Positions 1,745 through 34,077 of a stretch of DNA of 40,124 nucleotides are shown one piece after another (within the stretch, counting starts at the first letter, position 1; each line of letters opens with the position of its first letter). The DNA is from a virus: the UHGV virus genome UHGV-2156197; one strand, 5' to 3'. The notes below the pieces were generated by a model, which saw only the letters and a list, made by a program, of their open reading frames with translations, was not told where the DNA came from and ran no database searches. Position numbers and translations under genes: made by a program.

Positions 1745-1981
1745 TTAAGAGCAATTCGAACGGGTGAAGTTATTTTTATTCACCCATCGCCAGTTAAATG
1801 GATAACCGGCTCTGTACTCAGTCTGATTTGCAACTTTTCGTACACCGTAAATCTGCACTGACTGGGGCAGCCCACCAACCACTAACTCAGCCTGACAAAC
1901 AGGTTTCTGTTTCTCCAGAACAGGTCCTGAACATGCTGAAAGCACCAGACAGGCAATAACTGGAATAATTATATTTTTCAT
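1745..1981 (-). CDS. small lipoprotein, possible Cor-like superinfection-exclusion protein
   Basis: 78 aa; signal peptide with lipobox LSAC-S; sits between host-range genes and tail fibre; AT-rich upstream region. Cor assignment is inference from size and position only. Confidence 0.6.
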   Translation of the reverse strand: MKNIIIPVIACLVLSACSGPVLEKQKPVCQAELVVGGLPQSVQIYGVRKVANQTEYRAGYPFNWRWVNKNNFTRSNCS

Positions 1982-2089: not shown

Positions 2090-2764
2090 TTAATCATATG
2101 CGGCTGTGTTTATCGCCGTTATTACAATCCCGCTATTCGTCGTTCCGACTGAAGAACCACTTGCTGTTGTTGATGAAAGTCCTTTTATTCTTGTTCCTAC
2201 ACCTTCATTGAAGCACCCCGTTCCCACATCCACAGGCTGGATTATTGGTTGTCCGCCAGGTGCTGAACCAGCATGCAGAAGAACAGACCCCAGCCCCATC
2301 GGATTTACGGCCCATTTGCCTGCCATGTATGTATCGATGTTAAGCCCACCCGTTGCAGCGCCGGGTGAGCCTATAGTTGTAAGGTCGCTTAATACCCGGG
2401 ACTCATTCGTAAGTACCAGTGTCCCTTCGGCATCCCATATAGCCACACCCCAGGCAGGAAGGGTGAGCGGATATATAGCAAAAAAATACGCCTCCAGCAC
2501 GAAAGCCGAACCTCTGTAATTAGACGCATCAACACTGAACGTGTTGCCACTTTTTGAAGCTGATATCTTCGCCGGGGCGCTGGTTCGTGCAAATGCAATC
2601 CCTCCCTTCTGACCGTCGACAGTCACGGACGCCGAAGCACTGTTAAAATCCCCTCCAAAAGTTGAGTTTACAGTGACTTTCCGGTAAAGCGTCATTGGTG
2701 TGGAATCAGGCGTGATAAAAGGGTTCCCGTTAGGTAATGAAATCAATGCGCCATATTTAGCCAT
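2090..2764 (-). CDS. hypothetical tail-associated protein
   Basis: 224 aa, ATG start, tightly packed directly after the upstream gene in the host-range module downstream of J. Confidence 0.55.
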   Translation of the reverse strand: MAKYGALISLPNGNPFITPDSTPMTLYRKVTVNSTFGGDFNSASASVTVDGQKGGIAFARTSAPAKISASKSGNTFSVDASNYRGSAFVLEAYFFAIYPLTLPAWGVAIWDAEGTLVLTNESRVLSDLTTIGSPGAATGGLNIDTYMAGKWAVNPMGLGSVLLHAGSAPGGQPIIQPVDVGTGCFNEGVGTRIKGLSSTTASGSSVGTTNSGIVITAINTAAYD

Positions 2765-3082
2765 CTACGCAGTCTCCGCAAAAACGATTAACTGCACTTT
2801 GACTGCCGGGTAATCATTAATCCCATCACTACCTGAAGGCTGTATTGTTATGGTGTTTCCAGATGCAATAATGCTTCTTTTGTCTGTATAACTTATTGTC
2901 CCTTTATCCTCCAGAGTACCAACCGCAAAACCAACCTTTAAACCAGGCTCCAGACTGAACTGGTAGCTTCCCGTTTTCTGACCTAAAGCAAGATCGATGA
3001 TACCCACCACGGTTACAGGTTTAATGCCATAGTTATTCGGGACGCCGTTAGTGTCCCATGAGGCAAATCCAAAATCAGACAT
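2765..3082 (-). CDS. hypothetical tail-associated protein
   Basis: 105 aa, ATG start overlapping the J stop by 8 bp (coupled). Confidence 0.5.
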   Translation of the reverse strand: MSDFGFASWDTNGVPNNYGIKPVTVVGIIDLALGQKTGSYQFSLEPGLKVGFAVGTLEDKGTISYTDKRSIIASGNTITIQPSGSDGINDYPAVKVQLIVFAETA

Positions 3083-6000
3083 TGGGAGCCACTCCTGTTA
3101 GTTTACCAATCTGCACAAGCACACGACCTTCCGGCCCCGTAAAGGAAAGATTGTTGTCGGCTTTAGAAAGACACCACCCCCCCTGATTTGCAACTTTGTA
3201 ACCTTCTGACCAGATAGAACCTGAGATTTTCGCATTGTTGATTGCGGCGTTAGCAATTTTGGCGCTTGTTATACTTCCATTCTGAATAAACGCATCGCTG
3301 ATAAACACCTGACCATTAACAACAGCAAAGGGTGAATATTGCGTATCACCGCTGCCACTCATCAGGACGAACTGGTTTGCGTTAAACCCGACACGAGTGA
3401 CCACTGGCTTACCCGCTTCGGCCAGCACCGCGATCGACATCCCGGCGTTATACATCACACCGTTTATTCGAACTCCGGTTTTAAGGGTGTAAATTGCAGA
3501 TGCCCCGGTCGCATCAACCACGGCGGTGAGCTTATCTTCCAGCGCAGCAGTCACATCATTGAACTGCGCCTGCACCTGCGTCGACATTTCAGCCATGGCC
3601 TTATCGACCTGCGCAATGGTCGTTTTAACCACCAGAATATCCGCGCGTACCTCGCCGTACTGCGCCCACTGGTGTTCCACGGTTGCATGGTTGGCCAGCG
3701 CGTTCTGCAATGCGGCTTCAAGATTGGTATCAATGTCGCCGGTCAGGCGGTCACCGTCGGCAGATGTCAGGAAGTCATCAGCAATATCGCCCAGGTAGTC
3801 GTCAGCATTCGCATTAGATTCACCACGAACCCAGTCGGTCCACCCTGATTCATTACCCGTTCTGTCTACCAGCTGCGCGCGGTACCAGAACTCCTGACCA
3901 GCCTTCAAACCCAGTTGGGTGTATTCGGCAGACGGATAAGGCACATCCGACAACAAAAGGGGATTTGAGAAATCACTGTTCGCGGTGTACTGAATTTCCG
4001 TTTTCAGCGTGTCCCCGGTATTAGCCGGGAATCCCCAGTTCAGGCGAATCCCCCAGTTGATCGGCGTTGTCGCAAAGCCGACAGGTTTCGGCGGATTTCC
4101 CACCTTGCCCGTCAGCGTTTTCTCTTCGGAGTAGCCCCAGCCAGAGGAAATTTCAGAGGCATTAATAGCGCGCACACGCACGAGGTAGCGCCCGGCATAA
4201 ATACCCGATACATCAAATGACGTGGTGGAGCTGCGCGGCACGTTAACCCAGTTCCCGTCGTTGCGGCGCCATTGCGCTTCATAGGCGATAGCGTTCTGCG
4301 CCTGGTCCCAGCTCACGCGCATCGTTTCGACGCTAATATTCTGCTGCACCACTGAAAAGGAGCTGATCACGATGTTCGCAGGCGGCGACTGGTTACCCGG
4401 CGGGATCACACTCACCGGCCGCTGGTCAATGATGGCTCCGGTATCAATACGGGCATATTTATCCGGATCGTGCCATGCGCCAGTAATCGAGAAGGTACCA
4501 TCATTGTTATCGGAGACACTGACAACACGATACTGCTGGGCGTAGAGTTCATCTGACTCAACCACCCATACAGCTTCGGCCTGTGGTGTCTCACTGTATG
4601 CCGTGGTGACTGTGACTGATTCCCCGTTAACCGCCTGAATAGTCCTGCTCTGTGACGCACCGGAGGGAAGATTGAGAATAAGGCGATCGCCTGCTGCTGC
4701 ATCAGCTACGCGGTCAAGTTTAATCACGCGACCGTTAACAGCACTGATGCGGCCGCCCATAACTTTGCCGGACAGAAGCTCGTCTGACACGGCGATGATG
4801 TATCCCGGCTGCGGAATGTTTCCGTCCAGGCCAACATCAAACGAAACAACGCGATCCTTGTTGTTGGTGAGAATACCCCAGCGCCCCTTTCGGTTCGCTT
4901 CTGATTGCCTGGTACAGCCGATGGCTGTCATTTCCAGCTGATTAAATCCGTACCGGGCCACCAGAGGCTGCTCAAACACCGGCTCCATCGCATCTGCATA
5001 GGCGTTACCCGGATCAGACCAGGAAACCAGCGCCGTGGTATACCGCGTTTTTGTCGTGCTGCTGGAATAGGTAAAGCGTCCGTCGATAACGTTAGCGCGG
5101 GTGTAAGCGTAATCCACATCTCTCGGCATATCGGCAAGCGCAACAATCTGATCACCGCCCCAGTAGGTCATGCCACGGAAGATAGCAGCAAAATCACGCA
5201 GGACTGTGTAAGCGTCGTTTCGGTCCTGAATGTACACGTTGCAGGTATAACGTGGTTCGGTACCGTTGCCCCCTTTGCCGTCTAGCACCATCTGATCACA
5301 ATACTGGGCAACCTGATAAAGCGTCCATTTATCGATGTTAGCGGCAGTCAAACGGTGACCGAGGCCGAACCGGTCAGAAACAACCAGATCGTAAAAAATC
5401 CACGCAGGGTTATCCGTCCATGCCCACTTAAACGCACCGGTCCATGTACCGCTATAAATACGGGTTTCAGGGTCGTAGGTATCTGGAACGCGGATAACAC
5501 GACCGCGGGGCTCGCAGGAGATCTGCGGGATAGAACCGTTAAACTGGCTGGAATCGAATTCGATGTAGAGTAACGCTGTGTTTGGATAGCGTAACTTGGC
5601 GTCAATCACCTCAGTGAAGCTCTGCAGCGTCATCGTGTCGCCGATCTTCGCGCTGTTGGCGTCAGAGGTTATCTTACGCAGGCGGATTGTCCAGGTGCTT
5701 CCAACCTGCGGTAAATCAATACGGTGGCTGCGCTCGTAACCAGACGTTGTTTTTCCGGTCACGCTGGTATTGAGTACCGTCTGCCATGCGCCGCCGCCCG
5801 TCTGCAGGTCAATCGCATAATTGACCGAGTAACCGACCAGATCACCGTCGTCCTCCTGTTTGAAAAGCGATGGCCATTTCAGACGCAGGCGAACTGCCGA
5901 AAGCTGCGTATTGGTAAACGTTCGCGTCCAGGCTGTGGCGCTTGATACCTCAGTTCCCACGCTGATTTCGTTTTCGGTACCGGGAATACCCTGAATATAC

Positions 6001-6251
6001 TTTTGCGCCTGCGTTCCCGCGCGAAACTCCCACGTCACGCCGCTGAAGTTTTGGGAGCCATCGGCGTTCTCCAGCGCCGTTCCGTCCAGGTAGATATCTT
6101 TGCCGGTTAATTGTCCTGCAAATTCACCTTCGCCAAGCGCAACGAGGATTTTGGCTTTCGCTACAGATTGCAGATCATCAGGCTGTTCGGTAGGGGTTCT
6201 GGAACTGGAGCTGCCGCCCTTGCGGCCCTTTAACACTTTTTCTTTAGCCAT
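3075..6251 (-). CDS. J: host specificity / central tail fibre protein J
   Basis: 1058 aa; long-range similarity to lambda gpJ as recalled (e.g. YPNTAL, NPAW-FYD, YCDQ-V-DG-GG-EPR-TCN blocks). Confidence 0.9.
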   Translation of the reverse strand: MAKEKVLKGRKGGSSSSRTPTEQPDDLQSVAKAKILVALGEGEFAGQLTGKDIYLDGTALENADGSQNFSGVTWEFRAGTQAQKYIQGIPGTENEISVGTEVSSATAWTRTFTNTQLSAVRLRLKWPSLFKQEDDGDLVGYSVNYAIDLQTGGGAWQTVLNTSVTGKTTSGYERSHRIDLPQVGSTWTIRLRKITSDANSAKIGDTMTLQSFTEVIDAKLRYPNTALLYIEFDSSQFNGSIPQISCEPRGRVIRVPDTYDPETRIYSGTWTGAFKWAWTDNPAWIFYDLVVSDRFGLGHRLTAANIDKWTLYQVAQYCDQMVLDGKGGNGTEPRYTCNVYIQDRNDAYTVLRDFAAIFRGMTYWGGDQIVALADMPRDVDYAYTRANVIDGRFTYSSSTTKTRYTTALVSWSDPGNAYADAMEPVFEQPLVARYGFNQLEMTAIGCTRQSEANRKGRWGILTNNKDRVVSFDVGLDGNIPQPGYIIAVSDELLSGKVMGGRISAVNGRVIKLDRVADAAAGDRLILNLPSGASQSRTIQAVNGESVTVTTAYSETPQAEAVWVVESDELYAQQYRVVSVSDNNDGTFSITGAWHDPDKYARIDTGAIIDQRPVSVIPPGNQSPPANIVISSFSVVQQNISVETMRVSWDQAQNAIAYEAQWRRNDGNWVNVPRSSTTSFDVSGIYAGRYLVRVRAINASEISSGWGYSEEKTLTGKVGNPPKPVGFATTPINWGIRLNWGFPANTGDTLKTEIQYTANSDFSNPLLLSDVPYPSAEYTQLGLKAGQEFWYRAQLVDRTGNESGWTDWVRGESNANADDYLGDIADDFLTSADGDRLTGDIDTNLEAALQNALANHATVEHQWAQYGEVRADILVVKTTIAQVDKAMAEMSTQVQAQFNDVTAALEDKLTAVVDATGASAIYTLKTGVRINGVMYNAGMSIAVLAEAGKPVVTRVGFNANQFVLMSGSGDTQYSPFAVVNGQVFISDAFIQNGSITSAKIANAAINNAKISGSIWSEGYKVANQGGWCLSKADNNLSFTGPEGRVLVQIGKLTGVAPNV

Positions 6252-6261
6252 ATTGCGCCCA

Positions 6262-6285
6262 TAAAAAAAGCCACCCGAAGGTGGC
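6262..6285 (-). terminator. terminator-like hairpin in the I-J intergenic region
   Basis: GCCACC-CGAA-GGTGGC with A7 run on plus (T7 on the coding minus strand), 12 nt upstream of the J ATG. Confidence 0.4.
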
Positions 6286-6303
6286 CTGAAAAAGGTGTGT
6301 TAT

Positions 6304-6894
6304 CTACTGCTGATCTTCGACATAAATTCCGGCAGAAATAATCGCTCCGCCGATTCGCCGACGACCATAAAGAAGCGGGACCGGGTAACCCTGAGCTGCG
6401 GTGTTCGTAACTCCACCGAATGCGTAGGATGCACGGTTATCTGCACTTTGTTTGCTGGCTATGCCAGATGGCTGTGGAGAAAGCATCTGTACAACTCCGC
6501 CTAGCATCATTGCAGCACCAAATTTATATAAAAATGGTGAGGCTGCAGCCCATGGGGTGAAGCTAAGCACGGCACCAGCGGCAACCAACACGGCACCTAA
6601 AACTGTTTGCAGCACCCCGGCTTTTTTGCCCCCAATGATTACAGGCACAATTCTGATTACTTCACCTGTAACGGGAAAGCCAAGGTCGTCAACTCCAATA
6701 TTCTTTTTACCTTTGAAGATGGCAAATGTTAGCCCACGGCTTTTACTGCTAATCATATAACTTTCAAAGCCGGGGATAGTTTTAGCGAGGGCCGTTCCAG
6801 CTTCTGATACTTTATTGATAAGGCGATGGTGTATCTTTCCAAAGATCTTACCCGGCTCTCCACCTAGTTCAATTCGCGTCATTACCTCTTGCAT
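6304..6894 (-). CDS. I: tail assembly protein I
   Basis: Similar to lambda gpI C-terminal region (GGVFQ/VLGA, MMLGGVVQML); track start 6912 is TTG, trimmed to ATG 6894 with GAGGG SD. Confidence 0.8.
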   Translation of the reverse strand: MQEVMTRIELGGEPGKIFGKIHHRLINKVSEAGTALAKTIPGFESYMISSKSRGLTFAIFKGKKNIGVDDLGFPVTGEVIRIVPVIIGGKKAGVLQTVLGAVLVAAGAVLSFTPWAAASPFLYKFGAAMMLGGVVQMLSPQPSGIASKQSADNRASYAFGGVTNTAAQGYPVPLLYGRRRIGGAIISAGIYVEDQQ

Positions 6895-6916
6895 CGTACC
6901 CTCGACTTTCAATTGG

Positions 6917-7267
6917 CTATTGTTGTGATTTATTTGCTCTAATCACAATATTACATTCTTTATTATTTAACTCTCCGGACTGACCAATATCCCTTTGCGT
7001 TAAACAATCATTGGCAAGTTTTCTAACTGCTAATCTTGCATATACATCACCATTATTTGAAAGTAATCCAGTGATAAACTCATTATCAGATCTATTATGC
7101 TTCTGTTGTGCTTCCATCATCGCAATCATAAAGGCGTAATGGCTCACATAAGTTTCAGCAACAGAATTTGATTTTATTTCAGAATGACGTTCAAGATAAT
7201 CGTCTACAGTTCCTGCGTATGAATTAAATAATGTCGATAATAACAATAGACTTAATACAAATTTCAT
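6917..7267 (-). CDS. small secreted protein with signal peptide, moron inserted between K and I
   Basis: 116 aa; MKFVLSLLLLSTLFNSYA signal peptide; visibly AT-rich versus flanking tail genes; GGAG SD 8 nt upstream. Confidence 0.6.
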   Translation of the reverse strand: MKFVLSLLLLSTLFNSYAGTVDDYLERHSEIKSNSVAETYVSHYAFMIAMMEAQQKHNRSDNEFITGLLSNNGDVYARLAVRKLANDCLTQRDIGQSGELNNKECNIVIRANKSQQ

Positions 7268-7295
7268 GGTTTCGCTCCTTTGTTTTGAGCAAAGG

Positions 7296-8006
7296 TTAGC
7301 ACAGAGATTTATAACGTAGAATCTTCATCGTTCTTTCTTGCCAGTAACCGCCATACGGCACGCGCTGACTCAGATGACCGTACAGGTGGTGTAGCAACAT
7401 ATTACCCTCCAGCAGGATTCCCGCGTGGTTCCACTTATCAGCCTGGACCTGCATGATCACCATATCCCCTGGTTTCGGTGGCCCGTCGAATTCACGGAAT
7501 CCGCACTCATACCAGCAATCCTGATAGAAGTTGTCCGGATAGTCGTTTTCCCACCAGGGATAATCCACCCGGTAATCATGGAGCTCGATACCATGAGTTT
7601 GCCGGAAATAGCTCATTACCAGCCCCCAGCAGTCGAAGTGACCAAGCACAAACGGACGCTCCAGCAGCGGCAGTTCTCCACGCGGCTGGATGGTACGTAA
7701 ATCCCCCTCCGGCCAGCTCACGATATGCCAGGGTAAAAGCGTCGCATCGCATTGCGCTTTATCCAGTTCGCTCGGTTGCGTCGTGGCATCAGGGTGACTG
7801 TGAGCGATGGCGATCACCGTTCCCCAGTCCTCAGCAGTTGCATAGTCCTCGGGGCAAAGGACAAAATTGTCCTCCGGCGCCGCGGCAAGATTCCGGCACG
7901 GAAAATAACGTTCAACACGGCTTTTCTGCGCCACCACGCCGCAACACTCACGAGGATATTCTGCTGCAGCATGCGCCATAATCGCATCGATGGTTTTCTG
8001 ACGCAT
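7296..8006 (-). CDS. K: tail assembly protein K (MPN/JAB plus NlpC/P60)
   Basis: N-terminus nearly identical in pattern to lambda gpK (MRQ-TI-AI-AHA-AEYPRECCGVVAQK...YFPCRNL), HSHP motif. Confidence 0.85.
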   Translation of the reverse strand: MRQKTIDAIMAHAAAEYPRECCGVVAQKSRVERYFPCRNLAAAPEDNFVLCPEDYATAEDWGTVIAIAHSHPDATTQPSELDKAQCDATLLPWHIVSWPEGDLRTIQPRGELPLLERPFVLGHFDCWGLVMSYFRQTHGIELHDYRVDYPWWENDYPDNFYQDCWYECGFREFDGPPKPGDMVIMQVQADKWNHAGILLEGNMLLHHLYGHLSQRVPYGGYWQERTMKILRYKSLC

Positions 8007-8007
8007 A

Positions 8008-8763
8008 TCAGCTCCTGATCAAAGATGTTCCGGGGAAACCACCATGCGAAAGCTCGTTATTTTCGCCGAATCGGAGTTTGCAGGCCGTCAGCGTGCCGTT
8101 GCATTCATCCAACGACGGATCGCTTACCGGGTTGTTGTTTTTGTCGAAATAGCGGGTGCCGGCATAGTCACAGCCGTCGCCGGTGCGGTATTTATTACGA
8201 ATGCACCAGGTGCATAGCGAATGAAGTTGCCGGGTAGGGATCATTAATCCCTGCAGGTCCATCGGGCTGGAGAGTGTGAACTCAACCACTTCGTTGGTTT
8301 CACCACTCTTTGCATCGATGTAGAAAACCTTCAGCTTTTCCTGAGTCGGATCTGCTGTGGGGTTGCCATCGACAAAGTTATTTGCATCAAGATATTTGCC
8401 CAGCGTGTCATGAATGGTCACCTTCGCCTGCAGCATATCGTCATAAGCCAGACAAAGTGCCGTTATGGAGCTATCAAGGTTAGCTACCGATAATTTTGGC
8501 TGCGCGCCGCTTCCATTGGTAGATGCCTCGATCCCCTCAATCTGGCAGGGCCAGGCTTTATACTCCTCGCCCTGCCACCAGATCGATTTTGCAGGCAGTT
8601 TATTTTCATCACCTCCGGCGGCAGTAATTGCCGCTTCAGTATGTGCCAGGCTGTAGCTGTGAAATCGCAGCACCTCCCCTGTACCAAAGGCCGTTCCGTC
8701 GACCTCGTAAAGCCTGACTTCATCGCCGGGCTCGAGCTTTTGATAATCAGCGTTCAGACTCAT
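8008..8763 (-). CDS. L: minor tail protein L
   Basis: 251 aa, similar to lambda gpL C-terminal Cys cluster region; overlaps K start. Confidence 0.85.
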   Translation of the reverse strand: MSLNADYQKLEPGDEVRLYEVDGTAFGTGEVLRFHSYSLAHTEAAITAAGGDENKLPAKSIWWQGEEYKAWPCQIEGIEASTNGSGAQPKLSVANLDSSITALCLAYDDMLQAKVTIHDTLGKYLDANNFVDGNPTADPTQEKLKVFYIDAKSGETNEVVEFTLSSPMDLQGLMIPTRQLHSLCTWCIRNKYRTGDGCDYAGTRYFDKNNNPVSDPSLDECNGTLTACKLRFGENNELSHGGFPGTSLIRS

Positions 8764-28171: not shown

Positions 28172-28558
28172 TCAGGCGGCTGCACCCGCCGGTTCATATC
28201 TGCTGATCGTTATCTCTACCCGACCTTTCGGCACAACGGGTCCCCATTCCACCAGCATGCGCTTAATCTGGCTGTCGTCTTCCCAGACACCCGCATGCGT
28301 CAGCGCGTCAAACAGGGCTTTGTTGTAATTATCGATATCCCGACGGCGCGCATCCGGCGGGTACAGAGTGATTTCTACCGCTGCCAGTTCAGTCGATGGC
28401 TTCGGGAGACGTCGTAATTGCTCAATGATCGCCACGCAGGCAGCGCTCTGGTATTTACGACCATCAGCGCTAATGAGGTGACGACCGGCCAGCGGCCCCT
28501 TGTTAGGGGCGCGCCAGTAAGTGTTCACGCTCGGAGGGAACGGGAGCACAAGTTTCAT
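28172..28558 (-). CDS. rusA: crossover junction endodeoxyribonuclease RusA
   Basis: MKLVLPFPPSVNTYWR...RRDIDNYNKALFDALTHAGVWEDDSQI matches the RusA family; AGGAGGTG SD before ATG 28558. Confidence 0.85.
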   Translation of the reverse strand: MKLVLPFPPSVNTYWRAPNKGPLAGRHLISADGRKYQSAACVAIIEQLRRLPKPSTELAAVEITLYPPDARRRDIDNYNKALFDALTHAGVWEDDSQIKRMLVEWGPVVPKGRVEITISRYEPAGAAA

Positions 28559-30489
28559 GCCACCTCCTGCTGTTGCACTGCACACAGTTCCGGAAGATTT
28601 GCCTCAACCAGCGCCCGGGCGAATGGTGGTGGTACCGCATTACCGCAGCGGGCTACCTGCTTATCTTTTGCATAGCGATTTCCACGGTAGTCCTGATCAA
28701 TAACGTAACCATCCGGGAAGCCCTGCGCTTTGTAGAGTTCATGCGGCTGCAACATGCGCATTCCGATATCAACGATCTGGTATTTAACCCCATCGATCGT
28801 TACCAGCCATTCATCGTCACTTTCCCCGCAATACGTCTCGAGAAATGTGCGTACCTCACCCACGTGTTGGCCACCAGCAGTGATTGTTGGCATTGGCACA
28901 TCAAGGCGTTGCCCGTCGCGGCATGTTCCACGCAGTTTCACCAGATGAGAGGCAACTACCGCATGATGGTCGACAGTGGTCACTGAATGCGCGGGTTCAT
29001 CCATACTGACACCCGGCCCCGTATAGTTACCGCCGTAGTGTTTCGCCAGGAATGCGCTCACCGTCGCAAATTTATTTCCGCCTGCAGTAACGGTCCCCAG
29101 CGGGTTATCCAGTCGCAGCACACGCGGTTCTTGTCCAGGTCGTTCGCCATAACCCATCTGAATCAGCGTAGGCGTTACCAGTTGAGATTTACCGCCACCA
29201 CCAGCGGTGATGGTTGCGCTCGGTTCGTCTGCACGGTGGCCGACGCTGGCCCCAAACTGGCGGGCTATCACTGGCGCAACAAGACAGGCTCGGGATTGCT
29301 TCAGAATGGTATGAGCAGGTTTATTCAGCGGGCGCGGTTTAGCCTGGTATTCACTACCACCATTACCCGCCAGGAATGGTGTCAATGCAGCCTCAACAAT
29401 CCCGAGAGCATGCCCGTTCCCGCCCGGGCGTTTTGACGTGCCAGCGGTTACCGTCGGAACAGGTTCGGTAACGGGCTGCCCGGTTGCGCCAGTGCGGAAT
29501 TTTGTAAGGTGTGGAACGGCTAACGCGTAGCCGAGTTTTTTAGTAATGGTCTGTAATGGCTCATTCAGTGACTGTCCGCGAAAAGCGTCATACGCATTTT
29601 TTGAGCTCGTGTGGTTGCACTTCACGATAAACGGCGACGCACTTTCGATAACAAAGCGCTGTATGCCGCGTGCGATCCGCTTCAGAGTGTTCTCTGCCAG
29701 CGGTTTTTTGCGGTCGAAGATGGACAGAGCCGGAACATTCCAGTCGATACATTCCGCAGCGGTACGCCATGGCATCAGCCTGCCGCTCTGCACCTCCAGT
29801 GACTTGGGATCCCCATGGGTTACAACAGGCCACTGAATAGGGCAACCATCGCAGCGCATAACCATGAAGAAGCGTTTGCGGATCGTCGGCGCGCCGTAAT
29901 CACACGCGCGCAGTTCGCGATAATCAACATCATATCCAAGCCCTTCCACCAGCTGTTTGGCCTGCGTGCTGCCAGGATCAATAGCAAGAAATTCGCAGAC
30001 CTCCGCCAGTGCCGGGTGATCGGCAGGAATGCCAGTGGAAAGCATGCCGACAAAAGCATTGAATGTTTCGCCAGTGCGGGCAGGGTCTGGACGCATTTCA
30101 TCGGCCAGCAGCGGTCCCCACGTTTTAAACTCTTCCACGTTCTCCAGCATCATCACGCGCGGTCGCTTCGCCAGTGCCCAACGCAGAACGATCCAGGCCA
30201 GACCGCGTATCTCTTTTTTCACAGGCTTTGCGCCTTTGGCCTTTGAGAAGTGTCGGCAGTCCGGGCTAAACCATGCCAGGCCAACAGGATTGCCGCCGGT
30301 GGCGGCTACCGGATCCACGTCAAATACGGATTCACAGTAATGCAGTGTGTCAGGGTGGTTCGTCTTGTGCATCGCAATGGCGTTTTCGTCGTGGTTGATC
30401 GCAATATCCACGCTGCGTCCGATCGCCAGTTCAATACCCGTTGATGCACCACCGCCACCAGCAAAGTTATCAACGATAATCTCACGCAT
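28555..30489 (-). CDS. DNA (cytosine-5)-methyltransferase, unusually long, with repeated target-recognition-like segments
   Basis: 644 aa; motif I FAGGGG, motif IV SPDCRHFS, motif VI ENV, motif X GNAV; four TxTAGG repeats in the variable region. Confidence 0.85.
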   Translation of the reverse strand: MREIIVDNFAGGGGASTGIELAIGRSVDIAINHDENAIAMHKTNHPDTLHYCESVFDVDPVAATGGNPVGLAWFSPDCRHFSKAKGAKPVKKEIRGLAWIVLRWALAKRPRVMMLENVEEFKTWGPLLADEMRPDPARTGETFNAFVGMLSTGIPADHPALAEVCEFLAIDPGSTQAKQLVEGLGYDVDYRELRACDYGAPTIRKRFFMVMRCDGCPIQWPVVTHGDPKSLEVQSGRLMPWRTAAECIDWNVPALSIFDRKKPLAENTLKRIARGIQRFVIESASPFIVKCNHTSSKNAYDAFRGQSLNEPLQTITKKLGYALAVPHLTKFRTGATGQPVTEPVPTVTAGTSKRPGGNGHALGIVEAALTPFLAGNGGSEYQAKPRPLNKPAHTILKQSRACLVAPVIARQFGASVGHRADEPSATITAGGGGKSQLVTPTLIQMGYGERPGQEPRVLRLDNPLGTVTAGGNKFATVSAFLAKHYGGNYTGPGVSMDEPAHSVTTVDHHAVVASHLVKLRGTCRDGQRLDVPMPTITAGGQHVGEVRTFLETYCGESDDEWLVTIDGVKYQIVDIGMRMLQPHELYKAQGFPDGYVIDQDYRGNRYAKDKQVARCGNAVPPPFARALVEANLPELCAVQQQEVA

Positions 30490-33120: not shown

Positions 33121-33348
33121 TTATTCCTGTGGTTTGAGTTTTACTGAAGCATCGCTACGCTTTTCGTAAAGGTCGGGATGAAAAACCAATTTCCCCCCGG
33201 TTCGATATGCTGCTTCAGCTGCACGCCCTTTTGGGATAAGGCGACCAGTTCTATTACGCCACTGGTAAACAGCCTCGCTTGTGATTCCAAAAAATTCGGC
33301 AACCTTCTCAGTACTGCCGAAGTAGTTTTCAATATCATCGGTTGTCAT
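33121..33348 (-). CDS. Cro-like HTH repressor (YdaS-like)
   Basis: 75 aa; HTH FGSTEKVAEFFGITSEAVYQW; divergent from cI-like gene; AAGGAGG SD. Confidence 0.7.
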   Translation of the reverse strand: MTTDDIENYFGSTEKVAEFFGITSEAVYQWRNRTGRLIPKGRAAEAAYRTGGKLVFHPDLYEKRSDASVKLKPQE

Positions 33349-33356
33349 AACGCCTC

Positions 33357-33424
33357 CTTAGCTAAGTTTGATTAGATATTAATAACCAATCTAACTTTGG
33401 TCAATAAAAACTAAGATTGCTTAG
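33357..33424. promoter_or_regulatory. right operator region with three CTAAG-type operator sites
   Basis: CTAAG-TTTG-ATTAG (33362-33375), CTAAC-TTTG-GTCAA (33391-33404), perfect CTAAG-ATTG-CTTAG (33411-33424); plus palindrome CTTAGCTAAG 33357-33366. Confidence 0.5.
33376..33404 (-). promoter_or_regulatory. pR-like promoter for the cro-like operon
   Basis: Minus-strand -35 TTGACC (33404-33399), 17-bp spacer, -10 TAATAT (33381-33376); overlapped by operator sites. Confidence 0.5.
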
Positions 33425-33444
33425 CCTTTTAATTTATTTATGGT
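33416..33444 (+). promoter_or_regulatory. pRM-like promoter giving a leaderless cI-like mRNA
   Basis: -10 TATGGT (33439-33444) ends 6 nt before ATG 33451 and no SD is present; weak -35 ATTGCT inside the perfect operator. Confidence 0.4.
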
Positions 33445-33450
33445 GTTCAA

Positions 33451-34077
33451 ATGGAAACTGTCGGTCAGCGCATCAAAGCTCTCAGGCGCATAACCAAAAC
33501 CTCGCAGAAAGAACTGGGTAAGTTCTGCGGTGTTAGTGATGTGGCGGTTGGGTATTGGGAAAAAGACGTTAATGTGCCTGGAGGCGAGTCACTTGCGAAA
33601 CTTGCAAAGTATTTCAACACATCAATTGATTACATACTTTATGGCACTGAATTTGAAGGCAATCTGATAACCAAGATGCGAAGGATTCCGGTGATATCCT
33701 GGGTTCAGGCTGGACAGTTTACAGAATGTAAAGCAGCAGAAGTTTTCAGCGAAGTAGATAAGTGGATAGAGACATCACTCCGCATAGGGGATAGCTCCTT
33801 TGCATTGGAGGTTAAAGGTGATTCGATGACAAACCCTAATGGCCTCCCGACAATCCCTGAAGGGGCAACAGTCATAGTAGATCCAGATGCAGAGCCACTT
33901 CATGGAAAGATAGTCGTAGCCAGGCTTGATGGGACAAACGAGGCTACTGTAAAAAAACTTGTCATCGATGGGCCTCAAAAGTTCTTAGTTCCCTTAAATC
34001 CACGCTATCCAAACATTTCAATTAACGGTAATTGCCTGATCATCGGCGTTGTCAAAGGCGTTCAGTACGAGCTTTAA
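33451..34077 (+). CDS. CI-like repressor (XRE HTH plus S24 LexA-like autopeptidase domain)
   Basis: 208 aa; N-terminal HTH; C-terminal GDSM...KK catalytic Ser/Lys dyad of S24 peptidases. Confidence 0.85.
   Translation: METVGQRIKALRRITKTSQKELGKFCGVSDVAVGYWEKDVNVPGGESLAKLAKYFNTSIDYILYGTEFEGNLITKMRRIPVISWVQAGQFTECKAAEVFSEVDKWIETSLRIGDSSFALEVKGDSMTNPNGLPTIPEGATVIVDPDAEPLHGKIVVARLDGTNEATVKKLVIDGPQKFLVPLNPRYPNISINGNCLIIGVVKGVQYEL

Follow-up and report, generated by a model that had tools for sequence, protein, structure and literature searches.

In phage lambda the tail assembly genes K and I are adjacent, and the question raised by the locus studied here is what a small, AT-rich gene for a probably exported protein is doing between the counterparts of these two genes. 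The window, that is, the whole stretch of 40,124 nucleotides that was analysed (UHGV virus genome UHGV-2156197), looks like a largely complete HK97-like prophage. Among its other features are a protein of 644 aa that carries a C-5 cytosine DNA methylase domain at its N-terminus (28555-30489, minus strand) and a CI/LexA-like repressor with HTH_3 and Peptidase_S24 domains (33451-34077, plus strand), whose start is overlapped by a mild low-GC island at 33279-33670.

The gene between K and I

The gene in question, hereafter the cargo gene, is located on the minus strand at 6917-7267 (stop codon included), begins with ATG and encodes a precursor of 116 aa. On its 5' side lies gene K (7296-8006, minus strand), whose 236-aa product, a tail tip assembly protein, was recognized by Pfam matches to Prok-JAB and NlpC/P60 and by its match to phrog_30. 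On the 3' side lies the tail assembly gene I (6304-6894, minus strand; phrog_32, E 1e-70), whose limit towards the cargo gene was set from its conserved start and the break in homology described below. L, M, the tape measure gene and J flank these three genes in the lambda order. As the start of I we took the conserved ATG at 6894, which is accompanied by the Shine-Dalgarno (SD) sequence GAGGG, rather than the TTG at 6912 given by the ORF finder, because the TTG is lost in homologous loci and the annotated genes there begin at the ATG. With this start, the spacer from the cargo stop codon to I measures 22 nt and carries the SD of I.

The SD of the cargo gene, AAGGAG, was read from the sequence at 7275-7280 (minus strand), 7 nt upstream of the ATG, and it is kept in nearly all homologous K-I loci. 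The preliminary description of this DNA had reported an AT-rich ORF of 116 aa with its own SD between K and I, and the ORF call, the GC minimum, the AAGGAG motif and the domains of the flanking genes bear it out. The visibly lower GC, for which a GC plot had been suggested as a check, was equally confirmed: the cargo ORF has a GC content of 0.316 compared with a window mean of 0.516 (sd 0.043; z -4.6), and of all the 351-nt stretches in the window it is precisely 6917-7267 that has the lowest value (fraction as low or lower, 0.0001). Along the GC profile, values of 0.32-0.35 across the cargo ORF contrast with 0.50-0.58 in K, L and J; in homologous K-I loci the cargo has 0.30-0.36 and its flanks 0.49-0.55. 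Among 14 distinct alleles drawn from genomes, metagenomes and viral contigs, pairwise dN/dS was 0.06-0.15, with dS reaching saturation. Because of these ratios, the cargo ORF is a real gene under strong purifying selection, and no chance reading frame in AT-rich DNA.

A second GC island deserves mention. The stretch 1690-2080 is the second-lowest of the window and the only other comparably low one in the tail region, and it holds a gene for a 78-aa lipoprotein (MKNIIIPVIACLVLSAC..., 1745-1981, minus strand) with an equivalog-level match to NF047972 (E 3e-40), which identifies it as Cor. This island is found between a gene for a 224-aa protein at 2090-2764 and a Peptidase_S74 tail fibre gene. 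Thus, a different tail slot of the window is occupied by a cargo already known for exclusion.

The K-I slot and its expression signals

The lambda-like adjacency invoked in the preliminary description does exist elsewhere: in the E. coli prophage L039, whose tail module is related, no gene intervenes, and the overlap of K with I measures 13 nt. When the region 6000-8300 was compared by blastn with related phages, homology reached 6889-6894, the start of I, in most of them, and picked up again at 7277-7318, that is, at the K stop codon or about 20 nt past it. These breaks support the view that the cargo gene is extra DNA relative to relatives with another cargo or none. Since there are relatives without it, the gene is dispensable for the tail.

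The same position is occupied by other genes in related phages. One lipoprotein is encoded there in mEp390, a different one in mEpX2 and two in LMessi, while E. coli VREC0864 has a lipoprotein together with a KilA-N protein. HK106 and several E. coli prophages carry a 74-aa protein (HK106_018) that is annotated as similar to HK022 gp20, is named YebO family at NCBI and matches the Pfam family YebO (PF13974, E 1.8e-12). In total, five different lipoproteins, a YebO-family membrane protein and KilA-N were found in the slot of relatives, and the GC content of these other cargos (0.37-0.49) is in all cases below that of the tail genes. Among the matches listed, 16 of the 18 E. coli records matching both K and I had an annotated gene between them. 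The K-I junction is therefore a cargo slot of a kind well recognised in HK97-like phages, and most of what it receives are envelope proteins. Cargo of this sort is textbook knowledge for such phages, and this slot was already known to hold it.

In 5,426 complete E. coli genomes, the only contiguous match across the cargo gene was found in strain 21AR0133 (NZ_CM132251.1, positions 2281-3754). It belongs to a prophage remnant near the ycgX/ymgL/iraM region in which gene I is truncated by IS1 and the cargo ORF is intact.

We compared the tail module of the window with that of the homologous locus L004, in which the cargo ORF (98.3% identical) and K (97.9%) form the best-conserved pair. Along the module, identity was 92% for the tape measure protein, 73% for M, 81% for L, 98% for K, 98% for the cargo ORF and 89% for I. 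K and the cargo gene appear to travel jointly as one recombination block. The J proteins of both loci (1058 aa in the window and 1276 aa in L004) share 84% identity over the first ~920 residues and only 27% in the C-terminal part, so the cargo gene is not tied to one receptor-binding domain of J. The divergence of the J C-termini is compatible with a block acting after adsorption and, to the same degree, with a role that has nothing to do with phages. A Cor-like mask matched to the receptor was also considered and is disfavoured by the missing lipobox and by near-identical cargo alleles beside divergent J C-termini.

At the left junction of the slot, right after the K stop codon, there is a small hairpin (CCTTTG-7 nt-CAAAGG plus outer pairs; 7277-7301, minus strand) that overlaps the SD of the cargo gene. 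It is common to mEp390, mEpX2 and LMessi, whose cargo is unrelated. As the shared hairpin and SD precede unrelated cargos, these ORFs seem to have been swapped right at the start codon. The minimum free energy of the hairpin is -8.3 kcal/mol with a z of only -1.3, and any function of it is doubtful; as a regulatory element or terminator it was rejected on account of this z value and the lack of a T-run.

Regarding transcription, no hairpin with a T-run was found between the cargo gene and I, either in the window or in the K-I loci of close homologues. A GC-rich hairpin with a T-run is present just before I after the cargos of mEp390, mEpX2, LMessi, HK106 and VREC0864, and that of HK106 is also annotated as a terminator in this phage. 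Upstream of the cargo ORF, on the minus strand, no sigma-70 consensus site was detected. Because of synonymous substitutions, most relatives lack the TATAAA sequence that the window has at the very end of K, and in a relaxed promoter scan the sole shared site was weak (8-9 of 12 positions, 19-nt spacer), located at about -222 inside K in six of the eight loci scanned. With neither a terminator nor a convincing promoter to itself, the cargo gene would most probably be co-transcribed with the late tail operon.

In the definition of Juhala and Hendrix, as restated in PMC3594210, a moron is added DNA of deviant GC content with its own promoter and terminator. By this definition, the cargo gene has the extra DNA and the deviant base composition and does not have the terminator, and the sites upstream of it are weak and non-diagnostic. 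The preliminary description had called it a moron, which stands as regards its foreign composition and its insertion between tail genes; nevertheless, lacking its own terminator and a convincing promoter, the gene is not a strict moron. The missing transcription signals are the main point against the classical picture of a moron expressed from the prophage.

A further structure was noticed on the other side of I. The 52-nt spacer between I and J contains a terminator-like hairpin (AGGCCACCTTCGGGTGGCTT, 6268-6287, minus strand) followed by a T-run, nearly identical to the terminator found after the K-I cargo of LMessi, and E. coli VREC0864 has additional genes between I and J. The I-J spacer of the window may be a second cargo slot, empty here.

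The protein and its family

The precursor carries a predicted Sec signal peptide in codons 1-18 (MKFVLSLLLLSTLFNSYA; 7214-7267, minus strand). It has a single lysine (Lys2), a hydrophobic core (maximum Kyte-Doolittle value 2.47) and small residues at -3/-1, and cleavage is predicted after Ala18 (SYA|GT), which leaves GTVDD as the mature N-terminus. The prediction was rule-based only, from the n-, h- and c-region features, and residues 1-20 are also of low pLDDT in the structural model. The architecture of the leader is preserved in the family members scored, while its sequence diverges; the signal peptide seen in the preliminary description is consistent with all of these features. The leader contains no lipobox cysteine; for this reason, the product would not be a lipoprotein.

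The predicted mature domain (98 aa; 6920-7213, minus strand) is a helical bundle, according to AlphaFold2 and the alignment, with two invariant cysteines, C88 and C105 in precursor numbering. Across family members at 23-98% identity, the invariant residues are G73, C88, L100 and C105, and the start of the mature part is conserved as G-T/S-(V/L/I)-x-D-(Y/F). Two invariant cysteines in an exported protein suggest that C88 and C105 are likely to form a periplasmic disulfide. An earlier AlphaFold2 model of the full-length precursor had low pLDDT in residues 1-20 against more than 90 elsewhere, but four of its five models were poor; this model, and the Foldseek comparison with PDB made with it, are therefore unreliable. 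When the mature domain was modelled from 16 sequences, pLDDT was 92.4 and pTM 0.84, with all five models reaching at least 88.6. In the model, a short helical segment at the N-terminus is followed by two long helices and one C-terminal helix; the cysteines are found where the third long element is about to end and where the last helix begins. Structure prediction, one of the checks initially suggested, thus gave a confident mature domain but no structural relative of known function, including no known exclusion protein.

The cargo protein is a full-length member of phrog_13007 (E 1.8e-32, residues 3-113 on profile positions 6-115 of 116), and this family was also matched by 16 of 16 aligned relatives. 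As phrog_13007 has no annotation, membership is silent on function. Profile searches of Pfam, NCBIfam, PADLOC and PDB sequences gave no match for the cargo protein, nor did NCBIfam give a relevant match for any member of the family. In collections of 5.8 billion clustered proteins and 1.8 billion representatives, the number of homologue clusters rose from 5 to 17 and then to about 29. All clusters with a named source came from Enterobacterales (Enterobacter, Kluyvera, Escherichia, Shigella, Salmonella, Klebsiella, Raoultella, Pluralibacter, Pantoea and Serratia). The homology search proposed at the outset did reveal a family, but every homologue is named "hypothetical" and has no known function. 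In 50,697 phage records, tblastn with the window protein and with the family member P0014 found no match, and with the member P0013 it found three Klebsiella phages only.

Close homologues (60-98% identity) lie between K and I at every locus with genes listed, namely Enterobacter and other assemblies, the IS1-cut E. coli remnant prophage, as well as contigs from JGI and Logan; at another 19 loci, taken from viral contigs and genomes, the end of K and the start of I show the same conserved junction sequences. Distant homologues (23-31% identity) occur in contractile-tail (myovirus) prophages of the phiTE/E217/Pam3 type, in accessory islands of the baseplate clusters. There, the family member is located between a hub-like gene (E217_gp41) and a spike gene (PF18352), and in one case between Dit-like and Pam3_gp18-like genes; its GC content is lower than that of the flanking baseplate genes. 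Among the five myovirus loci read, three have an intrinsic terminator after the family member and three have the family member directly after another small secreted protein. In one Klebsiella phage, the member is found in an accessory island beside Arc/Ant-type genes, again inside the baseplate region. No K-like (JAB/NlpC-P60) gene was called in the myovirus loci. In all contexts examined, the family was found solely inside tail or baseplate clusters. Since the distant homologues occupy accessory islands of unrelated myovirus prophages, phrog_13007 is a mobile cargo that has landed repeatedly among tail-tip and baseplate genes, and not the component of one tail type.

The small secreted neighbours of the myovirus loci lie immediately 5' of the family member, at 4660-5004 in L013, 4672-5004 in L016 and 4587-4997 in L017. 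Two of them are related to each other (110-114 aa) and the other is unrelated (136 aa); none has a Pfam match. In L013 and L016 the end of the upstream gene overlaps the start of the family member. Secreted neighbour and family member may form a two-gene secreted cassette in myovirus prophages, and no counterpart of these companions was found in the window.

Possible roles and comparison with known systems

Our preferred explanation is that the cargo gene was acquired horizontally as an accessory, moron-type gene in the K-I slot of the tail operon of an HK97/lambda-like prophage. It would be translated from its own strong SD, most probably on late tail transcripts; expression in the lysogen would require a cryptic promoter inside K. 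After export through Sec, cleavage of the precursor behind Ala18 by signal peptidase I would release into the periplasm a soluble helical bundle of ~11 kDa stapled by the C88-C105 disulfide. There, the mature protein would most likely bind an envelope component and block the entry of phage genomes after adsorption, a block that could protect the lysogen or infected cell or else spare progeny. Export, disulfide, mode of transcription and above all the exclusion function are the inferred parts of this account. The entry-blocking role is suggested by analogy, from the company kept in the slot, the presence of Cor in the window and the precedent of soluble periplasmic exclusion proteins. Such proteins exist: T4 Spackle (gp61.3) and P1 Sim, both small and exported to the periplasm, have their effect on an incoming phage once it has adsorbed, so the proposed mode is not without example. 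Against an exclusion role stands the fact that there is no homologue of known function, no match to an annotated family and no known exclusion fold. Furthermore, the gene has neither a terminator nor a consensus promoter of its own to point to expression from the repressed prophage, from which an exclusion or conversion gene usually draws its selective value. Taken as a whole, we regard this explanation as about evenly poised between right and wrong.

The hallmarks of an accessory gene would fit just as well a lysogenic-conversion or fitness factor unrelated to exclusion, that is, a periplasmic protein altering the physiology of the envelope, for instance in stress tolerance, colonisation, or resistance to bacteriocins or host defences. 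There are documented morons of this sort (PMC3594210), exclusion is already provided for in the prophage by Cor, and a role directed at the host suits a family that moves between unrelated tail types and is untied to the receptor-binding type of J. However, no similarity to known virulence or stress proteins was found in Pfam, NCBIfam, PADLOC, PDB sequences or the fold comparison, there is no evident promoter for expression in the lysogen, and the family has never appeared at other prophage or chromosomal sites in the contexts examined; we judge a conversion factor to be rather unlikely. Another rival is a helper of the lytic cycle made only late, with the tail genes, which might, for example, keep released virions off the debris of the lysed cell or modulate envelope breakdown. 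The tight packing in the late operon, with translation signals only, no terminator before I and no consensus promoter, is the picture that a purely late gene presents. Yet relatives whose tail module is otherwise similar can do without the gene, its myovirus homologues are followed by terminators like independent units, and no link to the lysis cassette was seen, all of which make a late helper quite improbable.

The explanation that we consider least probable, to the point of being very hard to sustain, is a tail assembly or virion protein of this tail type, such as a partner or inhibitor of the NlpC/P60 peptidase of K. It could account for the fact that close homologues always adjoin K and that both genes are the best-conserved pair in the comparison with L004. 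Nevertheless, tails assemble in the cytoplasm, and the signal-peptide features would take the protein out of it into the periplasm; functional relatives have K next to I, and unrelated cargos occupy the same slot. Therefore, the cargo protein is probably not a structural or assembly component of the tail, as the preliminary description had supposed when it saw no obvious virion role. The idea that it serves the NlpC/P60 peptidase of K specifically, as a partner or immunity protein, was rejected because its distant homologues occur at myovirus loci without a called K-like gene. In general, the first interpretation is partly supported: it was right in kind, as a foreign, exported and non-structural cargo in the tail operon, and over-specific in the term moron.

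Returning to the entry-blocking explanation, it can tentatively be extended to the whole family. Possibly, though we would not lean on it, phrog_13007 is a new family of soluble, disulfide-stapled periplasmic exclusion proteins with a fold unlike the solved ones, which would travel between the tail-tip and baseplate clusters of unrelated siphovirus and myovirus prophages of Enterobacterales and block a shared post-adsorption step of genome delivery in the periplasm, and not a particular receptor. Cargo genes of tail operons are a main source of phage resistance and envelope remodelling conferred by prophages, and most of them are unannotated. In this context, phrog_13007 is a small, conserved and strongly selected family with a confident but unmatched fold, present in two unrelated tail architectures. 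If the periplasmic entry block is true, it would be a rare soluble type beside exclusion proteins that are mostly lipoproteins or membrane proteins, and a possible probe for the poorly understood periplasmic step of DNA delivery by siphoviruses and myoviruses; if there is no such role, it would be one more hypothetical moron-like gene. As it recurs in tail modules that are unrelated and its fold is unmatched, it would be reasonable to include it in exclusion screens, though it comes as no surprise.

Several known systems resemble the cargo gene in part. Lambda Bor and Lom are envelope-affecting conversion factors from the late region, and T5 Llp is a further exclusion lipoprotein of tail or structural clusters. 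Cor of HK022, N15 and phi80, and Lpp of the mEpimmI phages, are, like the cargo gene, low-GC envelope cargo among tail genes, and the lipoproteins of mEp390, mEpX2 and LMessi share with it the K-I slot and the same left junction. For mEp phages, experiments have shown that lipoproteins encoded in the structural clusters exclude superinfecting phages (PMC11893012). In contrast to Cor-type lipoproteins, the cargo protein has no lipobox, no N-terminal cysteine and no NF047972 match, and its gene is not linked to a single receptor-binding type of J.

The nearest counterpart in position is HK022 gp20/HK106_018, which has the same K-I location in the same phage group and is likewise small, of lower GC and targeted to the envelope. 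It matches PF13974, whereas the cargo protein has no YebO match in Pfam and no sequence relationship to it; it is followed by a terminator, which the cargo gene does not have. In a proven case of exclusion, the prophage expresses HK97 gp15, of the YebO family, which prevents the injection of genomes while leaving the receptor unmasked (PMC3594210). This is the kind of action that we propose for the cargo protein, although its predicted product is a cleaved soluble protein, unlike the YebO/HK97 gp15 family. With respect to the soluble exclusion proteins, neither homology to T4 Spackle or P1 Sim nor a Spackle-like fold or sequence came to light in the searches and fold comparisons; in function, these two proteins offer the closest analogy for a soluble periplasmic cargo protein such as the one predicted here.
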